A stretch of 34,185 nucleotides of DNA from a virus. Its lineage: Duplodnaviria; Caudoviricetes. The DNA lies in IMG/VR virus record IMGVR_UViG_3300020556_000014, positions 1 to 34,185 of that record. One strand, given 5' to 3'. Shown here piece by piece: positions 1 through 34,185 of this stretch. The notes under the pieces are model-generated. The model searched no databases, was not told the DNA's origin, and saw only the letters and a program-made list of their open reading frames with translations. The position numbers and the translations under genes were made by a program. Numbering within the stretch: position 1 is the stretch's first letter; each line of letters opens with the position of its first letter.

Positions 1-585
1 CCCGTCAATGTTTAACCCGCCAGTGCCAAAGGTCAGCACATTGTTGGCAACGGTGCCAATCAACGGCTTACGCGCTAGAACCATTGGTTCGTGCGCGGGC
101 TTTAGTGCGGTGCCCCAGCCTTGCCATTGCTTCGCTTCATCTGTAAATGGTGATTCCATTGGCGTTCTTTCATAATTTGGGCCACTCATTGCGCCATTTG
201 ATGTTGTTACCGCACCAGCTTTACCGCGCCAAATTCCCGCATCTTTATCTAGCGCCTTTGAGATGTTGTGCGACTTTGGAAACCCTGAACCATAAACCCA
301 CATAATCTGATCACGAATTTCAAAGCCCGCATCTTCAATCGCAACTGCCATTCGGTGATAAGTGCGCGAACCTGAAAAGGCAATCAGGTGACCGCCCGGC
401 TTTAACACTCGCAACGCCTCACGCCAAACTTCAACATTGAAAGCAATGCCACTTGAATCCCAACTCTTACCCATAAAGCCAAGCTCATAAGGTGGGTCGG
501 TGACGATGGAGTCAATTGAATCAGTTTCCATTGTTTTCATTACTTCAAGGCAATTGCCTTCAAATAAATTAAAGCGTTCGCTCAC
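1..585 (-). CDS. DNA methyltransferase (N6-adenine/N4-cytosine, beta class), N-terminal part; continues at 34178..33567 across the circular junction
   Basis: Not in the ORF track; translated by hand from GTG 585 (SD AAGGGGG): MSERFNLFEGNCLEVMKTMETDSIDSIVTDPPYELGFMGKSWD. Has the catalytic DPPY motif and later WGTALKPAHEP; open to position 1. Confidence 0.93.
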   Translation of the reverse strand, partial: MSERFNLFEGNCLEVMKTMETDSIDSIVTDPPYELGFMGKSWDSSGIAFNVEVWREALRVLKPGGHLIAFSGSRTYHRMAVAIEDAGFEIRDQIMWVYGSGFPKSHNISKALDKDAGIWRGKAGAVTTSNGAMSGPNYERTPMESPFTDEAKQWQGWGTALKPAHEPMVLARKPLIGTVANNVLTFGTGGLNIDG

Positions 586-612
586 ACTTCCCCCTTGTAA
601 ATTGTTATTGCC

Positions 613-677
613 GTGAAATGGTTGGAATCGAACCAACTGAAGGCGCTTCCCCCCGCCAACGCAAACCTGCCATTTCG
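613..677 (-). ncRNA. degenerate tRNA-like structure (T-arm plus acceptor stem)
   Basis: Perfect T-arm GTTGG-TTCGATT-CCAAC, closing stem GAAATG/CATTTC, inner hairpin GGCG-GGGGGAAG-CGCC; no canonical D-arm or CCA. Confidence 0.45.
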
Positions 678-6321: not shown

Positions 6322-7386
6322 CTATTCTGTCGGTTCTTGGCTTGCGCTTAATTTGTAAAACTTAACATTCTCTTTAAGCCTATCAATCCACGGCGCTAAA
6401 GCTACTGCCCTTTCACCGTGTTCAAGTGCCTCTTTTGGTTTGTCTAGGTTGTGGCACGCAATCGCAATTAGATCGTGTGGCAGGTATCCCCAAGCATCTG
6501 ACTCTACAAGATACTCTAGTGGTTGCTGCGTTATTCTCAATGCGGCGTGGGCGTGGGCGTAAGAATCTAGCCATAAGCCCTTTGAATAGTAATGTTGGGC
6601 GAGATCAACCCTTGGTTCTCGACTGCCTGGCGATTCTGCGATGGCTTTAAGTAGCCAAGATTCGCGTTCGGATTCATCCATTTTGGCTAAATAGCGCATT
6701 GAGGCAGCCCGTTCAGGTTTCCAAACTGCCTTTGGCAACTCTAAATGGCGTTTGAACTCTTGTATTGCCTCTGTGTATTTATTGTGAAAGAACAGTTCTC
6801 TTGCGTTGTAAAAGCAATTTCTATCATCTGTTGAATCTTCAAGCACCGATTGGGCGAGCAGTTCAAAATACTGACCCCTTGATTTTGTATCATCAGGGTG
6901 ATGATGGATTTCTAGCTTTGTCCAGGCTTGAACTTCGTTTGCTTTACAAGTCAAAACTTCGTGAACAGGGTGCTTCCACCGGTAATTCTTGCGGGCGTGA
7001 ATCTTATCCCCGCCATAAACTAAGCCAGGTGAGCCATCAGGGTTCCAACTCCAAGTGTATTTATACCTTGGGCGAGTAACTTGGGCTTCCAAAGACTCTA
7101 ATTCCTTGCGCCAGCCTGGTTGAAGTTGCTCATCCATATCGAGAGCAATGCAGTAGTCAATGTCAAGTGGGATTGCGGCAAGGGATGCGTTGCGGGCATC
7201 GTCAAAGCGCCACGGGCTAATGCCAATGTTGATAACGCTGATGCCAAGGGCGGTTGCCAGTTCAACGGTTTTATCTGTCGAACCAGTGTCGGCAATGAGC
7301 AAGAAGTCCGCATCTTTGGCAGAGTCATACCAACGCTGAACGAACTGTTCTTCGTTTAGCGCAATTGTGTAGATTGCTATTTTCAC
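6322..7386 (-). CDS. family 2 glycosyltransferase with C-terminal TPR-like repeats
   Basis: IALNEE, DTGSTDKT, FDDARN, LDMDE (DxD), W..PVHE, then helical TPR-like region. Confidence 0.92.
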   Translation of the reverse strand: MKIAIYTIALNEEQFVQRWYDSAKDADFLLIADTGSTDKTVELATALGISVINIGISPWRFDDARNASLAAIPLDIDYCIALDMDEQLQPGWRKELESLEAQVTRPRYKYTWSWNPDGSPGLVYGGDKIHARKNYRWKHPVHEVLTCKANEVQAWTKLEIHHHPDDTKSRGQYFELLAQSVLEDSTDDRNCFYNARELFFHNKYTEAIQEFKRHLELPKAVWKPERAASMRYLAKMDESERESWLLKAIAESPGSREPRVDLAQHYYSKGLWLDSYAHAHAALRITQQPLEYLVESDAWGYLPHDLIAIACHNLDKPKEALEHGERAVALAPWIDRLKENVKFYKLSASQEPTE

Positions 7387-18642: not shown

Positions 18643-19077
18643 TTACGGTGTGATTGATTTTGTAATTTGACCTGAGATAGGCCAAGTTGCACTAATTGTT
18701 GCAAGTTCGCCCACGGCACCTGATACCGCTTGCCATTCTGCCACAAGCGCGTTAAAGGTATATTTCGGATTGCTTGCGCTTACTGTTGTGTTAACTGGGC
18801 GAATTTCCATTGCCGCAACTAAACCAACAGTTCCATTTGTTGTTGTTGTGCCATTGATTAGTTCTTCAAGGGCATTGTCTGCGTAATCTTGATTAAACTC
18901 AATTGTGATTGAGTTATCAGCAAGGCCAGCAACGCGGGTGCGAGCTGCGCCTGTAGTTGAAATTCCAGTAGTGTCAATAACATCATAGCTCGTGCTTAAA
19001 CTTATTGAGGTCACATATTGAGAGATGTCATTGCTTGCGAACACCACATAGGCATTTGTTAAAACTAAGCGTGGCAT
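18643..19077 (-). CDS. major tail tube protein, paralog 2
   Basis: RTRVAGLAD..T.EFNQD...SNP.YTF...GAVGELAT...TWPISG. Confidence 0.85.
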   Translation of the reverse strand: MPRLVLTNAYVVFASNDISQYVTSISLSTSYDVIDTTGISTTGAARTRVAGLADNSITIEFNQDYADNALEELINGTTTTNGTVGLVAAMEIRPVNTTVSASNPKYTFNALVAEWQAVSGAVGELATISATWPISGQITKSITP

Positions 19078-19080
19078 ATA

Positions 19081-19500
19081 TTAAACCGCCTTCGTGATTA
19101 CGCCTGAGATGGGCCAAGTTGCACTAATTGTGGCCAACTCACCAACGGCGCCGGAAAGGGCTTGCCATTCGGCTACAACGGCTGAGAATGTGTAGCTAGG
19201 ATTGCTCGCACCAACTGCTGCTGATGTTGGCTTTACAACACAAGTTACATTTGTTCCAACAAGTGATGAACCAACTGCGTTAATTGTTACTTCAGGCGCA
19301 GATGTTGCAAAATCTTGATTGAACTCAAAGGTAACTGAATTATCAGCAAGTCCTGATTGGCGTGTACGCGCTCCAGCAGAACCCATCCCGGTAGTGTCAA
19401 CCACATCTTCGCTGGTGCTAAGGGCAACGCTCGTAATAAATTCAGAAAGATTGATGCCGTTGATTACAACTGAAGCATCTGTTAAGACTATACGGGCCAT
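19081..19500 (-). CDS. major tail tube protein, paralog 1
   Basis: Same motifs as 18643..19077. Confidence 0.85.
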   Translation of the reverse strand: MARIVLTDASVVINGINLSEFITSVALSTSEDVVDTTGMGSAGARTRQSGLADNSVTFEFNQDFATSAPEVTINAVGSSLVGTNVTCVVKPTSAAVGASNPSYTFSAVVAEWQALSGAVGELATISATWPISGVITKAV

Positions 19501-20683: not shown

Positions 20684-20795
20684 GCGTGGTTCTCGTTTCT
20701 ACTTTGGGAAGCATTGCGCGTTCCAATTGCGGAACGGCGGTAGCGGTTTCCTTTAATTTTACCTTAATTCTTAAAATTCTTTTTATGCGTTCCAT
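20670..20795 (-). CDS. small basic protein (41 aa)
   Basis: MERIKRILRIKVKIKETATAVPQLERAMLPK...; overlaps both neighbours. Confidence 0.55.
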   Translation of the reverse strand: MERIKRILRIKVKLKETATAVPQLERAMLPKVETRTTRGDH

Positions 20796-21460
20796 ATATC
20801 GTGCTGCCTATCATCTAACCAATAGCTCTTTGAGTGAGGCAGTATCGCGCCTGTATTCACATAGATTGGAAAACCAAGTGAACGAACACGGCGGCAAAAT
20901 TGTAAATCCTCGCCAATCCATTCACCGTTGATAGGTCCATCCCAAAACCAACACCAATCCTGCCCTTGGTGTGGGTCGGCATCTGCTCTGATTGCTTCCA
21001 ACACGCTGCGGTGGATTAGTAAACATCCAGTGCCTGCGGCATCTACTTGGAAAATTGAATCTTTATCGTACTTGTTAAGTGGCAAAAAGCCTTCAGGAGC
21101 ATCTTGAAAAATTGTTGGCACTGGTTGCGGGTATGGATAACCTGTTTCAAAACTAGCAAATACCAACCCTGCTACAACTGGGCGTTCTTTATCGTGTGCG
21201 GTTTCAATTAACTTATCAAATGCTTCAACGGATAGTTGCTCATCTGAATCCATCATTAGTAACCAATCGGATTTAGTTTCTAAAAATTGCTTAACTAAAC
21301 GATTGCGTTGCTTTGAAAGTAAACCTGAACCCTTAATTCTAATGAATGGGCCAAGGCGTGCTGATCTTGATTGAGCAACTTGAATTAAACTAAATGCAAA
21401 CCCGCCGTTAACTGTTCCTGGGTCGCAACTGCCAATTGAAACTTTATGTGCTGATTTCAT
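20783..21460 (-). CDS. GT-A fold glycosyltransferase
   Basis: RN.LV..FL...WLLMMDSD (DxD), GTGCLLIHRSV, GEDLQFC.R. Confidence 0.88.
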   Translation of the reverse strand: MKSAHKVSIGSCDPGTVNGGFAFSLIQVAQSRSARLGPFIRIKGSGLLSKQRNRLVKQFLETKSDWLLMMDSDEQLSVEAFDKLIETAHDKERPVVAGLVFASFETGYPYPQPVPTIFQDAPEGFLPLNKYDKDSIFQVDAAGTGCLLIHRSVLEAIRADADPHQGQDWCWFWDGPINGEWIGEDLQFCRRVRSLGFPIYVNTGAILPHSKSYWLDDRQHDIWNA

Positions 21461-30311: not shown

Positions 30312-32432
30312 TCAATTTGCCACCGACCCTTGCTCCCAATTACCGAAATGATCTGCTGGATACCAGACAGTTGTTCGCCCCATTTCGGATGTTTTGACCT
30401 TGTGATGCCTTAAAGCTGCATCTCGACCAGCCTTCAAACCCTTATCGTCATAACGCTTTCCAAGAATATCTGAGAGCTGTGAGGTGGATAAGCCAGGGTT
30501 GGCAGCAACCACATCAATCCACATATCTTCAAGGCCACGCTTTTTTGCCATTCTTGAATCAACACCGCCCAAGGTCAGCGAACGGGTGGTTTCGTCAAAG
30601 GTGAGCATTTGTTCCTCTTGAAGCACATCTCGCCCATCGGCTGAGAAAAATCTGCCGTCTTGAGTCTTTTTCAGTAGCCAACGCACATCGGCCCAATCGT
30701 CAAGGCGAGTGGCACCGCGAGCGCGGTCAACGCCATTCTCTTGAGCGCGGCCTGTGTGAATAGGTAGAACAAGGTTCGAAACGCCTGCTCTTTCTTTAAT
30801 CACATCCAAAGTATCTAAGAACACGCCAACATCGCTGTTTGAGTTCTCATCACCGCAACCCGTAAAGGCGCGGGCGAACGGGTCTAAAATCCAAGTCTGA
30901 GCATCTAAATCTTTTAGGATAGAAACGGTCAAATCCTCAACCCGCGCAACCGTTAGCGGCAGCCTCTTGCCTCTTAGGTGAACCAAGGTAATCTTGTCAG
31001 AACTCTCAATTGCCACATCATTCATCCACCGGCGGTATTGATTTTCAGAAACTTCATAGTTAAAAATTACAATTCTGCCCTTATGGTCAGGTTGGTCAAA
31101 GTAATTCAGAAACTTCTCGCCATCAGCTAATGATTTGGCTAGTGAGTTGATTAGGGTGGTCTTACCCGCCTTGTATTGGGCTGTAAGGGTCACATTCGCC
31201 CCCGTTGGGAATACATCCTTGATTGTCCACTTAACTTCCTCAATTGGCAGTTTAAGCTCATCTGTGAGGCTGCGAACATAGATTGGCGTGTGGTAATTAC
31301 TTGCCGCTTCCTCGGCATCAAGTAACTTTTTGGCGGTGCGCTTTGCGCGGCTCATTTTGATCTCTTGAGCCGTTAGGTAGTCAATCTCGGTTGAGTCGGT
31401 GGCAGGTACGCCATCCGTTGCGATGATCTCGCCCGTTGTCGGGTTGTATTCGTAATTTGCTATTTCATCCCTGCCCACGCCAAAGCCTAAAAAGCGCAGG
31501 GCTTGGGCAGCGGCCTTGAAATCATCGTGATGATTTAGGTGGGCGTAGGTGGCAAACTTTGAATAGCCTTTTTCGCTTTGAAATGTGGTTGAGGTTGAGA
31601 ATACAAAGAATGTGTCATAGCCGCCGTAGTTAGTAGATGCGCTGATTCCTTCATCTTTATTCGGTCTGCGCCAATAGGTAACTTGGGCTTGGGTGTAAAC
31701 CTTTTTCCAACCCAACGGCTCAAGTATTTCTTCCCAAGTCATTCTTTGGTTGTAATCATCGCCTGGCAGCGCAGGATTGAATTCCCGCTTTGTCAACTCT
31801 TGTTTAGTTATCTCAGACTTAGGCATCTCATCAAAGGTTTTTAAGATTGTAAACAATTCCCACAATTCCTTTTCGGTAATCGTTGGGATGTTCTCAATTG
31901 ACCCTGCAATCATTGTCCAAGATTTGCCGTTGGGGTGGGCAGTGCCGCCTGAAGGTGCGCAGATGCTAAAACCACCAGCCCCGCGAGTTTCGATTAGGCA
32001 GCCGCCATCCTCGCCCGCTTTAGAGGCAAGTTTGGTGTTGCCCTCAATTGGTGCGCCATCAATCTTAACTAGAAAGTGAATTCCCCCCGATGGTGTCATT
32101 TCTGAATAGCCATTGGTCAGGGTTTCCCATAGGTATTCAAGCCCTGATGCCTTCATTGCCTCTTTCGCGGCAAGGTGAAGTTTCTGCTCAATGGCGCGGC
32201 CTTCCCATTCAATCATCAATAGATTGTTTGAAATCGGCCCTGTTATGACACCAAGCCCCTGCACTTGGTCATTGTTAAACCAATTAAGCAGCTCATCTTG
32301 CGTGGGTTGGCGTTCTTGGTATTGCTTCCAAGAGCCAACGCCAGGGCGCTTGCTGCCATCGGTTGCAACAGGCACCACAACAATCCCTTGGGCGGCAAAG
32401 CGAAGGGCGGTGGTTAGGATTTCGTTAGTCAT
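30312..32432 (-). CDS. bifunctional primase-polymerase fused to RecA-like (AAA_25-type) helicase
   Basis: SKRP...WK.YQ, TPSGGIH, ETRG.GG...APS; Walker A AQYKAGKTT, ILDP, HTGR...RGATRL.DWAD. Confidence 0.92.
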   Translation of the reverse strand: MTNEILTTALRFAAQGIVVVPVATDGSKRPGVGSWKQYQERQPTQDELLNWFNNDQVQGLGVITGPISNNLLMIEWEGRAIEQKLHLAAKEAMKASGLEYLWETLTNGYSEMTPSGGIHFLVKIDGAPIEGNTKLASKAGEDGGCLIETRGAGGFSICAPSGGTAHPNGKSWTMIAGSIENIPTITEKELWELFTILKTFDEMPKSEITKQELTKREFNPALPGDDYNQRMTWEEILEPLGWKKVYTQAQVTYWRRPNKDEGISASTNYGGYDTFFVFSTSTTFQSEKGYSKFATYAHLNHHDDFKAAAQALRFLGFGVGRDEIANYEYNPTTGEIIATDGVPATDSTEIDYLTAQEIKMSRAKRTAKKLLDAEEAASNYHTPIYVRSLTDELKLPIEEVKWTIKDVFPTGANVTLTAQYKAGKTTLINSLAKSLADGEKFLNYFDQPDHKGRIVIFNYEVSENQYRRWMNDVAIESSDKITLVHLRGKRLPLTVARVEDLTVSILKDLDAQTWILDPFARAFTGCGDENSNSDVGVFLDTLDVIKERAGVSNLVLPIHTGRAQENGVDRARGATRLDDWADVRWLLKKTQDGRFFSADGRDVLQEEQMLTFDETTRSLTLGGVDSRMAKKRGLEDMWIDVVAANPGLSTSQLSDILGKRYDDKGLKAGRDAALRHHKVKTSEMGRTTVWYPADHFGNWEQGSVAN

Positions 32433-33138
32433 TGTTTGCCTCTTTTGGATAAGGCAAAACCTGGTAACGCAATTTTTCTAATAATTCCAATTTTCGTTTC
32501 CCCCTGGCGTTAAAATAAATGTAACGGTGCTTTCTTGAGCGTTCCTTGAAGTAAACATTATCTTTGCCAAATTTCTCAACTACTTGTTTATTGGTTAAAC
32601 CGTTGGCATAAGTTGCGTGGTGCTGATTCTCTAAACCTTTGACTTTTGGGTCAAGAAACTTGGCGCTTAACCCCGTGTAAATGAAATTAGTTGCCTGGTA
32701 AACAACTCCAATATGAGCTTGAGAGCTGTCAGCGTAAGAAACAATGATTTCCCTATCTAATCGCTTGATTGTTCTGCCAATTAGGTAACTTTCACCGTTT
32801 TTCGGAATTGAGTCATCAACCCACAAGCGATTTAGTTCATAGACATTAAACTTTTCGCTTTCCCCGCAAATACCTTTTAGTAATGTTGAACTTGGGCTTA
32901 CGCCATAAGTTACAACGCCAACTGGCATCAAACTTGAATAGTTAAACAACCCAAAAGCAAAACTAACAGGGCATTTTCGGTGCAGATAATGTTTTTCAAC
33001 AACAATATCCATTGCCAAGCTGTAAGAAATTGGCTCAATCCAATAATTTTGGAGCGATGAGGTCGGAATTGAACCGCCAATTGCAGGTTGGAATACCTGC
33101 CGTGTTTCCATTACACCATCACCGCAAGTTGCCAACAT
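32425..33138 (-). CDS. mom: Mom-family (GNAT-fold) adenine DNA-modification enzyme
   Basis: HYLHR..P.SFAFGL, GVVTYG, ELNRLW...PKNGES..I, IVSYAD....H.G.VYQATNF.YTG, KHRY. ATG 33138 follows the upstream stop and AAAGGGA. Confidence 0.82.
   Translation of the reverse strand: MLATCGDGVMETRQVFQPAIGGSIPTSSLQNYWIEPISYSLAMDIVVEKHYLHRKCPVSFAFGLFNYSSLMPVGVVTYGVSPSSTLLKGICGESEKFNVYELNRLWVDDSIPKNGESYLIGRTIKRLDREIIVSYADSSQAHIGVVYQATNFIYTGLSAKFLDPKVKGLENQHHATYANGLTNKQVVEKFGKDNVYFKERSRKHRYIYFNARGKRKLELLEKLRYQVLPYPKEANND
33050..33125 (-). tRNA. tRNA-Gly(TCC)-like element, non-canonical, inside the mom CDS
   Basis: GCGGTGA TG GTGT AATGGAA ACAC G GCAGG TATTCCAA CCTGC AATT GGCGG TTCAATT CCG(A)CC TCATCGC T CCA: four stems, U73 discriminator, encoded CCA. 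Confidence 0.85.
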
Positions 33139-33453: not shown

Positions 33454-33580
33454 GGTAGCCTTCTTTCCTTAATATCGCAGCAATCACCTTCGCCATTCGC
33501 CAAGGCGTATCAGGCAAAGATTCTTCATAAGATTTCCAAAGCGCAAAGGCGATGGCACCCTCAAGGCTATCGCGGCTCAA
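33440..33580 (-). CDS. hypothetical protein (46 aa)
   Basis: TTG start overlapping the MTase end; MSRDSLEGAIAFALWKSYEESLPDTPWRMAK...; fills the gap. Confidence 0.45.
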   Translation of the reverse strand: MSRDSLEGAIAFALWKSYEESLPDTPWRMAKVIAAILRKEGYLANH

Positions 33581-34178
33581 AGTCTAACTCGCCTTCTTTA
33601 TCTCTTAGGGCAAATTCAATCCGCGCCTTAGCAATTGGCAAGTATTCAGGCGTTAGCTCAATTCCAATAAAGTTAAATCCTTCATACATCGCAGCTTTAC
33701 CTGTTGAGCCTGAACCAAGGAACGGGTCAAGCACAATGCCGTTTGGCGGTGTTACAAGCCGCACTAGGTATTGCATCAGCGATGTTGGTTTGACGGTTGG
33801 GTGAGTATTTGCCCGCGCCGCTTTTACTGCACCATAAGCTGCGGCTGCTTTTTTCAATCTTTGAGAATCTTCATCTTCTCCATAATTGTCTAAAGATCTA
33901 CCGCCACCGCCTTGAGTTTCTTTAACCTCAAACCCATCCAACCCCTCATTGCGATCTTTCTTGCTTGCCTTCGCGCAGTAAAAGAATCGGGCAGGTTCGC
34001 CAAGTAAGTCAGCAACCTCATCGCTGCCATCGTGAATGAAGTTGGCAGGGAAGCGGCCAGCGGTGTTCTGTTCCCATCCACCTGAACCGTCACCGCCACT
34101 TGCGGTGTCTTGCGTTCCAAATGTTGCTGTTCTATTTCCAGCCGATGAATCATCGCCATCAGCTCTACCAACCCGCGA
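33567..34178 (-). CDS. DNA methyltransferase, C-terminal part (whole protein about 398 aa with 1..585)
   Basis: GRFPANFIHDGS, RFFYCAKAS, HPTVKP, SAM-binding DPFLGSGST; in frame with 1..585 after removing the 7-nt overlap. Confidence 0.93.
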   Translation of the reverse strand, partial: SRVGRADGDDSSAGNRTATFGTQDTASGGDGSGGWEQNTAGRFPANFIHDGSDEVADLLGEPARFFYCAKASKKDRNEGLDGFEVKETQGGGGRSLDNYGEDEDSQRLKKAAAAYGAVKAARANTHPTVKPTSLMQYLVRLVTPPNGIVLDPFLGSGSTGKAAMYEGFNFIGIELTPEYLPIAKARIEFALRDKEGELDFEPR

Positions 34179-34185
34179 CCCGTCA
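34179..34185. repeat. 7-nt terminal overlap with positions 1-7
   Basis: CCCGTCA at both ends. Confidence 0.85.

Follow-up and report, generated by a model that had tools for sequence, protein, structure and literature searches.

In phage Mu, the Mom protein transfers glycine from Gly-tRNA-Gly to the N6 of adenine in double-stranded DNA, accepting all three tRNA-Gly isoacceptors of E. coli (PMC13219725). The locus studied here raises the question of why a mom gene should carry a tRNA-Gly-like RNA of its own, encoded by the same bases as the beginning of the enzyme (Table 1). It belongs to a virus record of 34,185 bases, the whole of which was analysed (hereafter the window). The HK97-type head genes, tail genes and WhiB-like regulator found in the window annotation suggest a tailed phage of Actinobacteria. 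The record was classed as linear by the tool although an N6/N4 DNA methyltransferase gene is split over its two ends, the 5′ part lying at 1-636 (minus strand); because of this split, it is probably circularly permuted. The tRNA-like/mom locus sits on the minus strand between the methyltransferase region and a primase-polymerase gene, and the phage has genes for a methylase and for Mom, both on that strand. Elsewhere in the window, two glycosyltransferase-like genes (20783-21460 and 6322-7386, minus strand), one of them directly behind the major capsid gene, are possibly involved in virion glycosylation, and two adjacent short ORFs at 18643-19500 (minus strand) both match the same major tail protein families.

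Table 1. Features of the tRNA-like/mom locus and its neighbours (window coordinates)
Feature	Position	Strand	Remarks
tRNA-Gly-like RNA, Mom-linked, with bulged T stem	33050..33125	-	76 nt; family covariance model R1, 84.5 bits; covariation
Acceptor stem, 5′ strand (G1 C2 G3)	33119..33125	-
Anticodon loop, 8 nt	33088..33095	-	holds UCC (33092-33090); extra base on 5′ side
Bulged A of T stem	33063	-	9 bp from acceptor end; between pairs 51-63 and 50-64
U73 discriminator and encoded CCA	33050..33053	-
Mom-family GNAT gene	32425..33111	-	228 aa from D-loop AUG; first 21 codons lie in the tRNA-like element
In-frame AUG in D loop	33109..33111	-	one of two likely Mom starts
Alternative in-frame AUG, 13 nt before G1	33136..33138	-	weaker SD, -5.3 kcal/mol
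N6/N4 DNA methyltransferase gene, 3′ part	33567..34185	-	upstream of mom, same strand; context
Primase-polymerase/AAA gene	30312..32432	-	start overlaps mom stop; same strand; context

The element presents a 7-bp acceptor stem beginning with G1-C72, C2-G71 and G3-C70, a 4-bp D stem and a 5-bp anticodon stem. Folding confirmed the cloverleaf with intact acceptor stem, U73 and CCA that had been proposed from the sequence (the original prediction), as well as the 8-nt anticodon loop and the bulged A in the T stem. RNAfold draws the anticodon arm as 6 bp and 6 nt, because the first and last bases of the 8-nt loop can pair. Taken alone, the element has only a modest folding advantage over shuffled sequences, 5 of 200 of which did as well (-26.6 kcal/mol, z -2.46); in a 171-nt context, the cloverleaf is the minimum-energy fold, yet the region is no stabler than its shuffles (z -0.07). 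The Rfam tRNA model RF00005 matches it at 33.4 bits (E 0.002) and ARAGORN calls it tRNA-???, without an amino-acid assignment. The D stem, the GG of the D loop, the TTC of the T loop and the UCC anticodon are all retained; the 7-nt anticodon loop and regular 5-bp T stem of a regular tRNA-Gly are not found. The glycine identity set G1-C72, C2-G71, U73, C35 and C36 (PMC9976931) is complete. The element is single-copy in the virus record, and a scan for promoters and terminators gave counts at chance level. Four runs examined for expression contained under a tenth of the words; a 160-nt contig from a lake RNA library spans 32980-33121, across the CCA into mom codons, but a contig cannot reveal RNA ends, strand or level, and we draw nothing from it.

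The overlapping gene encodes a clear Mom homologue. It matches PF25680 with an E-value of 1.5e-40 (139.5 bits, cut-off 27.1), the Pfam domain beginning directly after the CCA (about 33045), and also matches phrog_1384. Its similarity to Mu Mom (PDB 8bv8) is detected in sequence (E 1.7e-14) and in fold (E 2.2e-12, the top fold match), and six of seven Mu active-site residues are retained in the alignment (H58/Y59, R111, S124, D149 and Y159), the essential R151 being replaced by Ser. In the predicted structure, the tRNA-coded residues 1-22 form a coil, with pLDDT values of 66-74 over residues 1-20 versus more than 90 in the GNAT domain. The 5′ acceptor strand of the RNA (33123-33118, minus strand) is also Shine-Dalgarno-like for the D-loop AUG and, in an identical copy (L007), pairs with a generic anti-SD at -9.1 kcal/mol; the same generic anti-SD was used in all start scoring. 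This AUG is the only nearby start in three close relatives (L023, L025 and L030). As a family-wide start or operator it was rejected, since only 32 of 86 5′ contexts have one and most start shortly before G1; it enters below only as part of an alternative explanation. In 80 of these 86 contexts, no start codon (ATG, GTG or TTG) lies between the CCA and the Mom domain, and the RNA must therefore be translated; in ten, the start lies solely inside the RNA, and in eight of these it is a D-loop AUG preceded by an acceptor strand that resembles an SD (-8 to -11 kcal/mol). Wherever a later start is missing, excision of the tRNA would thus destroy the mom message. An identical 76-mer stands at the head of Mom genes (L639, L654) whose proteins share only about 40% identity with that of the window, and the window's element subfamily also heads the Mom of a third clade; from these sequences, enzyme bodies appear to have been swapped right behind the CCA. 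Three pairs of loci (L639/L380 on one contig, L661/L444 and L657/L381) seemingly contain neighbouring Mom genes from two clades, or share one RNA cassette ahead of Mom genes of different clades.

The association with Mom extends far beyond this phage. A pattern search for the bulged 3′ end in viral sequences gave 119 loci (39 with only 300-nt flanks; near-copies kept), of which 107 lie within 300 nt of a Mom match, one lies farther away and 11 have no Mom. These 107 comprise 62 elements placed 5′ in frame, 1 5′ free, 32 3′ in frame, 9 otherwise 3′ and 3 antisense. In bacterial genomes, 33 of 45 such matches lie beside Mom (within 300 nt), as against 1 of 135 unbulged tRNA ends collected with a pattern allowing either spacing, and 28 of the 29 neighbouring ORFs checked match PF25680. 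The tie to a modification enzyme that had been proposed is thus borne out by a family-wide comparison (107/119 viral bulged ends versus 1/135). A partner tRNA-dependent GNAT transferase is present in that the element overlaps the Mom gene, and we infer that Mom uses the RNA.

Because the 3′-end pattern itself demands the bulge, Mom loci were also sampled by their protein, 80 from each of three clades, and scanned with the covariance model. Since ordinary tRNA-Gly reach 51-55 bits with this model, unbulged partners would not escape it. An element was found within 300 nt of Mom in 29, 64 and 63 of the 80 loci, rates valid for those clades only, since loci with the element had supplied the queries and a second Mom gene is present in a few loci. 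Removal of model matches more than 300 nt from Mom and of duplicate sequences left 144 distinct copies, of which 120 are placed at the 3′ end, 22 lie clear of the ORF and 12 run antisense. In one bacterial class, 15 of 401 genomes contain 21 Mom loci, 17 with the element and 16 with the bulged A. A quick Mom tree with many weak forks is used only to show that 5′, 3′ and element-free loci cluster and interleave.

The element is far from universal. Among the 80 closest homologues of the window's Mom, a bulged element is present in 14 and absent within about 1.5 kb in 66; in four (L029, L033, L034 and L036), an ordinary tRNA-Gly lies antisense about 460 nt past mom. A model rescan of 49 element-free close homologues returned only the ordinary antisense tRNA-Gly of L029 and L033 and a weak match in L071. 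The latter (L071:683-761) is an unusual group of tRNA-like hairpins that has A1-U72, A73 and UCC in a loop and precedes the Mom gene by 28 nt. In 15 mom regions of cultured phages (0.8-1.2-kb flanks), nothing was found in ten, Mu included. Two have bulged copies (Salinibacter phage B2_17 and Psychrobacter phage vB_PmaS_Y8A), two have unbulged versions (Arthrobacter phages BarretLemon and Sicarius2) and one, Microbacterium Phonegingi, has an ordinary antisense tRNA-Gly. The copies of Y8A are two tandem, unannotated, D-arm-less RNAs of 68-69 nt with the bulged A, located after mom (L625:1444-1511 and 1516-1584). The unbulged versions overlap the mom 3′ end (L623:1374-1447 and L630:1395-1468 in the Arthrobacter phages, L276:901-969 in an uncultured phage) and form natural controls for the bulge. 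Ordinary-looking tRNA-Gly genes, often on the opposite strand, occur near other Mom genes without a bulged element (also L626:1436-1510 and L601:1177-1250). A blastn search of cultured phages with the 76-mer gave only weak partial matches. Several further observations concern the surroundings of these loci: a ParB-like nuclease-domain gene just before mom in cultured phages L624, L625, L626, L623 and L630, as in Dehalococcoides modules; 78-nt bulged copies with no Mom match within 1.5 kb in three Terriglobia genomes (L330, L339, L374); and short tRNA-like genes of 72-77 nt with shrunken anticodon arms, 1-1.8 kb before mom, in gut phages (L538, L539, L547, L549, L552).

What is conserved and what drifts in this family can be read from two data sets. 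The alignment A1 has 91 rows (the window and 90 of 134); eight non-family matches were left out before the 134-row table was made (L094, L168, L331, L333, L343, L366, L368 and L369; L185 repeats L168). L094, L168 and L185 represent an unrelated tRNA-like RNA of 89-90 nt with a GUA-containing loop, which matched the bulge pattern with no Mom nearby. Comparison is far more telling than the fold of the single element: in the 91 homologues, 86.5% of the cells pair, compared with 69.9% in shuffles and 41-49% in slid controls, and two-sided changes occur in 15 of the 22 pairs, non-synonymous changes included. Across the 144 protein-picked copies, G1-C72 and C2-G71 are invariant, and the third pair is G3-C70 in 133, G-U in 8 and C-G in 3. 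U73 is found in 134 (A73 in 10), an encoded CCA in 102 (42 being without) and a CC-bearing anticodon hairpin in 139. The bulge position also holds an A in 139 copies, and the bulged register pairs best in 137 and not better in 7. Among chromosomal copies, 16 of 17 have the bulged A, and the pairs 49-65, 50-64 and 51-63 each switch compensatorily around it. The bulge is retained across all three frames of the 3′ overlap (86/86) and in 29 of the 34 copies that are free or antisense; because of this persistence in every frame and outside the coding strand, it is, by comparative evidence, selected as RNA. Nine loci (L546, L555, L575, L576, L581, L599, L600, L607 and L608) form a subtype with four T-stem pairs (two, bulged A, two) and no encoded CCA, often antisense to the mom 3′ end.

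The marks of decoding, in contrast, drift. U33 is present in 62 of 128 scorable copies, and position 34 is an A in 43 of 128 versus none of 34 controls. The D stem is absent in 47 of 139 copies and the GG is missing in 64 of 139; the TTC of the T loop is found in 45 of 144 and missing in 99, and purine 37 is lost family-wide together with U33, the D arm and the T loop. All canonical decoding marks occur together in only 5 of the 144 copies versus 28 of 37 ordinary phage tRNA-Gly, used as controls after removal of L267 and L276. The proposal that the unusual features do not reflect decay is therefore upheld: pairs covary two-sidedly, and identity marks for glycyl-tRNA synthetase (GlyRS) are kept while those for decoding drift. 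The bulge proved conserved when homologues were compared.

The 8-nt anticodon loop fared differently. In a local subfamily, picked on the first 24 bases only, all 41 copies are 76 nt long and share loop register, bulge and UCCA; in 39 of them the reading frame continues into Mom. Across the whole family, the additional loop base is the exception: among the 128 scorable copies picked by protein, 21 have it and 102 show a loop of normal size, a class that takes in 5-nt loops whose closing pair is 32-38, as seen in the controls. The identity of the additional base also changes (A, G, C or U). The loop was thus rejected as a family hallmark, and a role as a second conserved diverting device is not supported. 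The original prediction that two insertions divert the RNA from the ribosome to the enzyme is upheld in part: the bulge is family-wide and lies inside the pairs governing EF-Tu affinity, and the loop is conserved only in the local subfamily. Since element length is constant modulo 3 in 5′-placed copies (22/22 and 60/62) and not in 3′ copies (46/37/33), the extra base may be held by the mom reading frame. In the window copy, an 8-nt loop would still hinder decoding. Known +1 frameshift suppressors of the sufD type are tRNA-Gly with a four-base anticodon after U33 and an otherwise normal body. Here no conserved four-base anticodon follows U33, the body is bulged and the loop extension is absent from most copies; the suggested +1 frameshift suppression finds no support, because both the extra base and U33 vary. 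We also discarded selection on the encoded GGSxPT peptide, which is frame-fixed only in pattern-picked 3′ copies. This is a bias of the pattern, since protein-picked 3′ copies are spread over the three frames (48, 24 and 14).

Judged by covariation and conservation, the Mom-linked RNA is real and conserved, and we consider it probable that it serves as a dedicated, non-translating glycine carrier for Mom. RNase P and 3′ trimming would release the RNA from the mom transcript, the host GlyRS would charge it with glycine, the bulged A would keep the charged RNA off EF-Tu and the ribosome, and Mom would use it to place glycine on DNA adenines. In the window copy, one transcript would yield either the RNA or the enzyme, because the stretch from the CCA to the Mom fold offers no usable start. 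The retained positions agree with the glycine identity set, and the antisense copies (12/144) and tandem D-arm-less copies of Y8A fit a product acting in trans. The bulged A lies among pairs 49-65, 50-64 and 51-63, which set EF-Tu affinity (PMC11231383), and weak EF-Tu binding is predicted here. A bolder version, possible but rather doubtful in our estimation, is that the bulged A, at its 9-bp distance from the acceptor end, excludes EF-Tu and at the same time serves as a positive mark for Mom, that each 5′-embedded transcript is either cut or translated, so that tRNA processing sets the enzyme-to-donor ratio, and that many Mom enzymes have their own orthogonal tRNA. Several observations weigh against a dedicated carrier. 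Mu Mom works with all three host isoacceptors (PMC13219725), and a search of the 1.5-kb mom region of Mu turned up no element; in principle, then, Mom can do without a dedicated RNA. Most of the closest homologues of the window's Mom (66/80) and of the cultured-phage mom regions (10/15) lack a bulged element, unbulged versions exist (L276, BarretLemon, Sicarius2), and some copies show no advantage of the bulged register (7/144), no encoded CCA (42/144) or A73 (10/144). Thermus GlyRS also reads C50-G64 (PMC9976931), and the family mostly has G50-C64. Finally, the essential R151 of Mu is Ser in the window's Mom.

The same marks can be read otherwise. The RNA might be a tRNA mimic that limits Mom output in cis, its cloverleaf hiding the ribosome site and start, or offering an RNase P cut or a binding site for Mom or GlyRS. 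The leader of thrS is a cis-acting tRNA mimic of comparable kind. We regard this explanation as unlikely on the whole, although 5′ copies agree with it: the RNA must be translated in the 80 of 86 contexts without a later start, starts inside the RNA occur in ten, mostly behind an SD-like strand, and length is constant modulo 3; the translation of Mu mom is also controlled, by Com according to annotation. Against it stand the 120 of 144 copies at the 3′ end, the 22 off the ORF and the 12 antisense ones, the two free tandem copies of Y8A, and the retention of U73 and an encoded CCA, for which a purely cis operator has no need. A brake of this kind could be compatible with a carrier role. Acting in trans, the RNA might instead be a decoy that binds Mom, or host factors attacking tRNA-Gly, without being a productive donor, and so restrains a potentially toxic enzyme or soaks up defence. 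This seems to us somewhat less credible than the cis mimic. The conserved parts are indeed those of the acceptor-T helix thought to be read by Mom (PMC13219725), the constant spacing between bulge and 3′ terminus suggests that a protein takes its measure from the CCA, and TacT also reads U73 and G71 of tRNA-Gly. The anticodon CC, required by GlyRS and not obviously by Mom, is nevertheless kept in 139 of 144 copies, which indicates charging, and a charged copy is most simply a substrate.

The two remaining explanations are much weaker. That the RNA is a working translational tRNA, or a +1 frameshift suppressor, supplying glycine for phage proteins is highly improbable. The window copy taken by itself would agree, having a D stem, a GG D loop, a TTC T loop and UCC, and being scored as tRNA by Rfam; the family does not, as U33, purine 37, the D arm and the T loop are lost family-wide, A34 occurs in a third of the copies versus none of the 34 controls, the extra loop base varies and the bulge lies inside the pairs contacted by EF-Tu. 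Hardly any credence is left for a decayed tRNA or attachment-site relic kept only as coding sequence for the Mom N-terminus, a reading largely refuted by the two-sided covariation in 15 of 22 pairs, non-synonymous changes included. The element is in frame, the same GGSxPT-type peptide recurs in 5′ copies and most close homologues have no element, as such a relic would allow. Yet the RNA is kept in other frames, free and antisense, the peptide that it encodes is the low-confidence coil of the predicted structure, and no integrase was found among the ORFs scanned in the window (short ORFs covered in part).

A dedicated carrier for Mom would have counterparts elsewhere. In the non-proteinogenic tRNA-Gly of staphylococci, T-stem pairs reportedly cause weak EF-Tu binding. 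The NP1/NP2/NEW tRNA-Gly of S. aureus, donors for the Fem enzymes, share glycine identity and a GNAT-fold transferase partner with the window element; they bind EF-Tu weakly, which is only predicted for the window element, and have lost elbow nucleotides (PMC4574755). The window copy keeps G18/G19 and U55/C56, although the family often misses the GG (64/139) and the TTC (99/144). The staphylococcal tRNAs are free chromosomal genes with UCC anticodons that serve the cell wall, and no T-stem bulge is mentioned in the parts of that paper covered (PMC4574755); the window element is of a viral or island-borne kind, overlaps the gene of its enzyme, has the bulged A and would serve DNA. The EF-Tu antideterminant box of tRNA-Sec (pairs 7-66, 49-65 and 50-64; PMC11231383) occupies the same acceptor-T stretch as the bulge. 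It is a set of base pairs in a tRNA that translates through SelB (PMC11231383), whereas the bulge is an unpaired nucleotide and no dedicated elongation factor was seen here. The Mom-linked element may thus be placed with non-translating donor tRNAs by resemblance. Mu Mom (PDB 8bv8; PF25680) shares its fold and most catalytic residues with the window's Mom, but scavenges the three host isoacceptors and keeps R151, and no such RNA was found by its gene.

The embedding itself was already known. McMurdie et al. (2011; PMC3146451) described a 'pseudo-tRNA' of 76 bp, resembling tRNA-Gly and embedded near the start of mom in the ssrA genomic islands of Dehalococcoides, and assigned it no function. 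Like the window element, it is 76 nt long, lies in the first 150 bp of mom and has an NCC anticodon (a variable 'DCC' in the paper; PMC3146451). It is very probably of the same family, since 17 of the 21 Mom loci in the bacterial class sampled above carry a match, 16 of them bulged. Mom is described there as methylating, and the parts of the paper covered contain neither the bulge nor a link to Mom chemistry (PMC3146451). To this, the present work adds a phage, a family survey and the 3′, antisense and D-arm-less forms. The sections and supplements of the Mom paper that were searched make no mention of a phage-encoded or embedded tRNA (PMC13219725), and no proposal of a Mom-dedicated tRNA or of the bulge was found in the literature covered, which included the Mom paper, its preprint, a jumbo-phage review and part of the Mom supplements and left most subscription journals outside.

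In many phages, then, a tRNA-like RNA and a protein are coded by the same bases, and annotation misses such RNAs, as with the two unannotated copies in the cultured Psychrobacter phage Y8A. The bulged A is a single testable structural mark, for which nature provides a series with and without it. The use of charged tRNA-Gly by Mom competes with phage translation, and late expression has been suggested as a way round this (Silva et al., 2026; PMC13219725). If the carrier reading is true, a Mom carrier ignored by EF-Tu would be a second way round this competition, and a chargeable tRNA scaffold to which EF-Tu is blind could serve tRNA-dependent enzymes in vitro. The known range of non-translating donor tRNAs would then extend from cell-wall synthesis to DNA modification.
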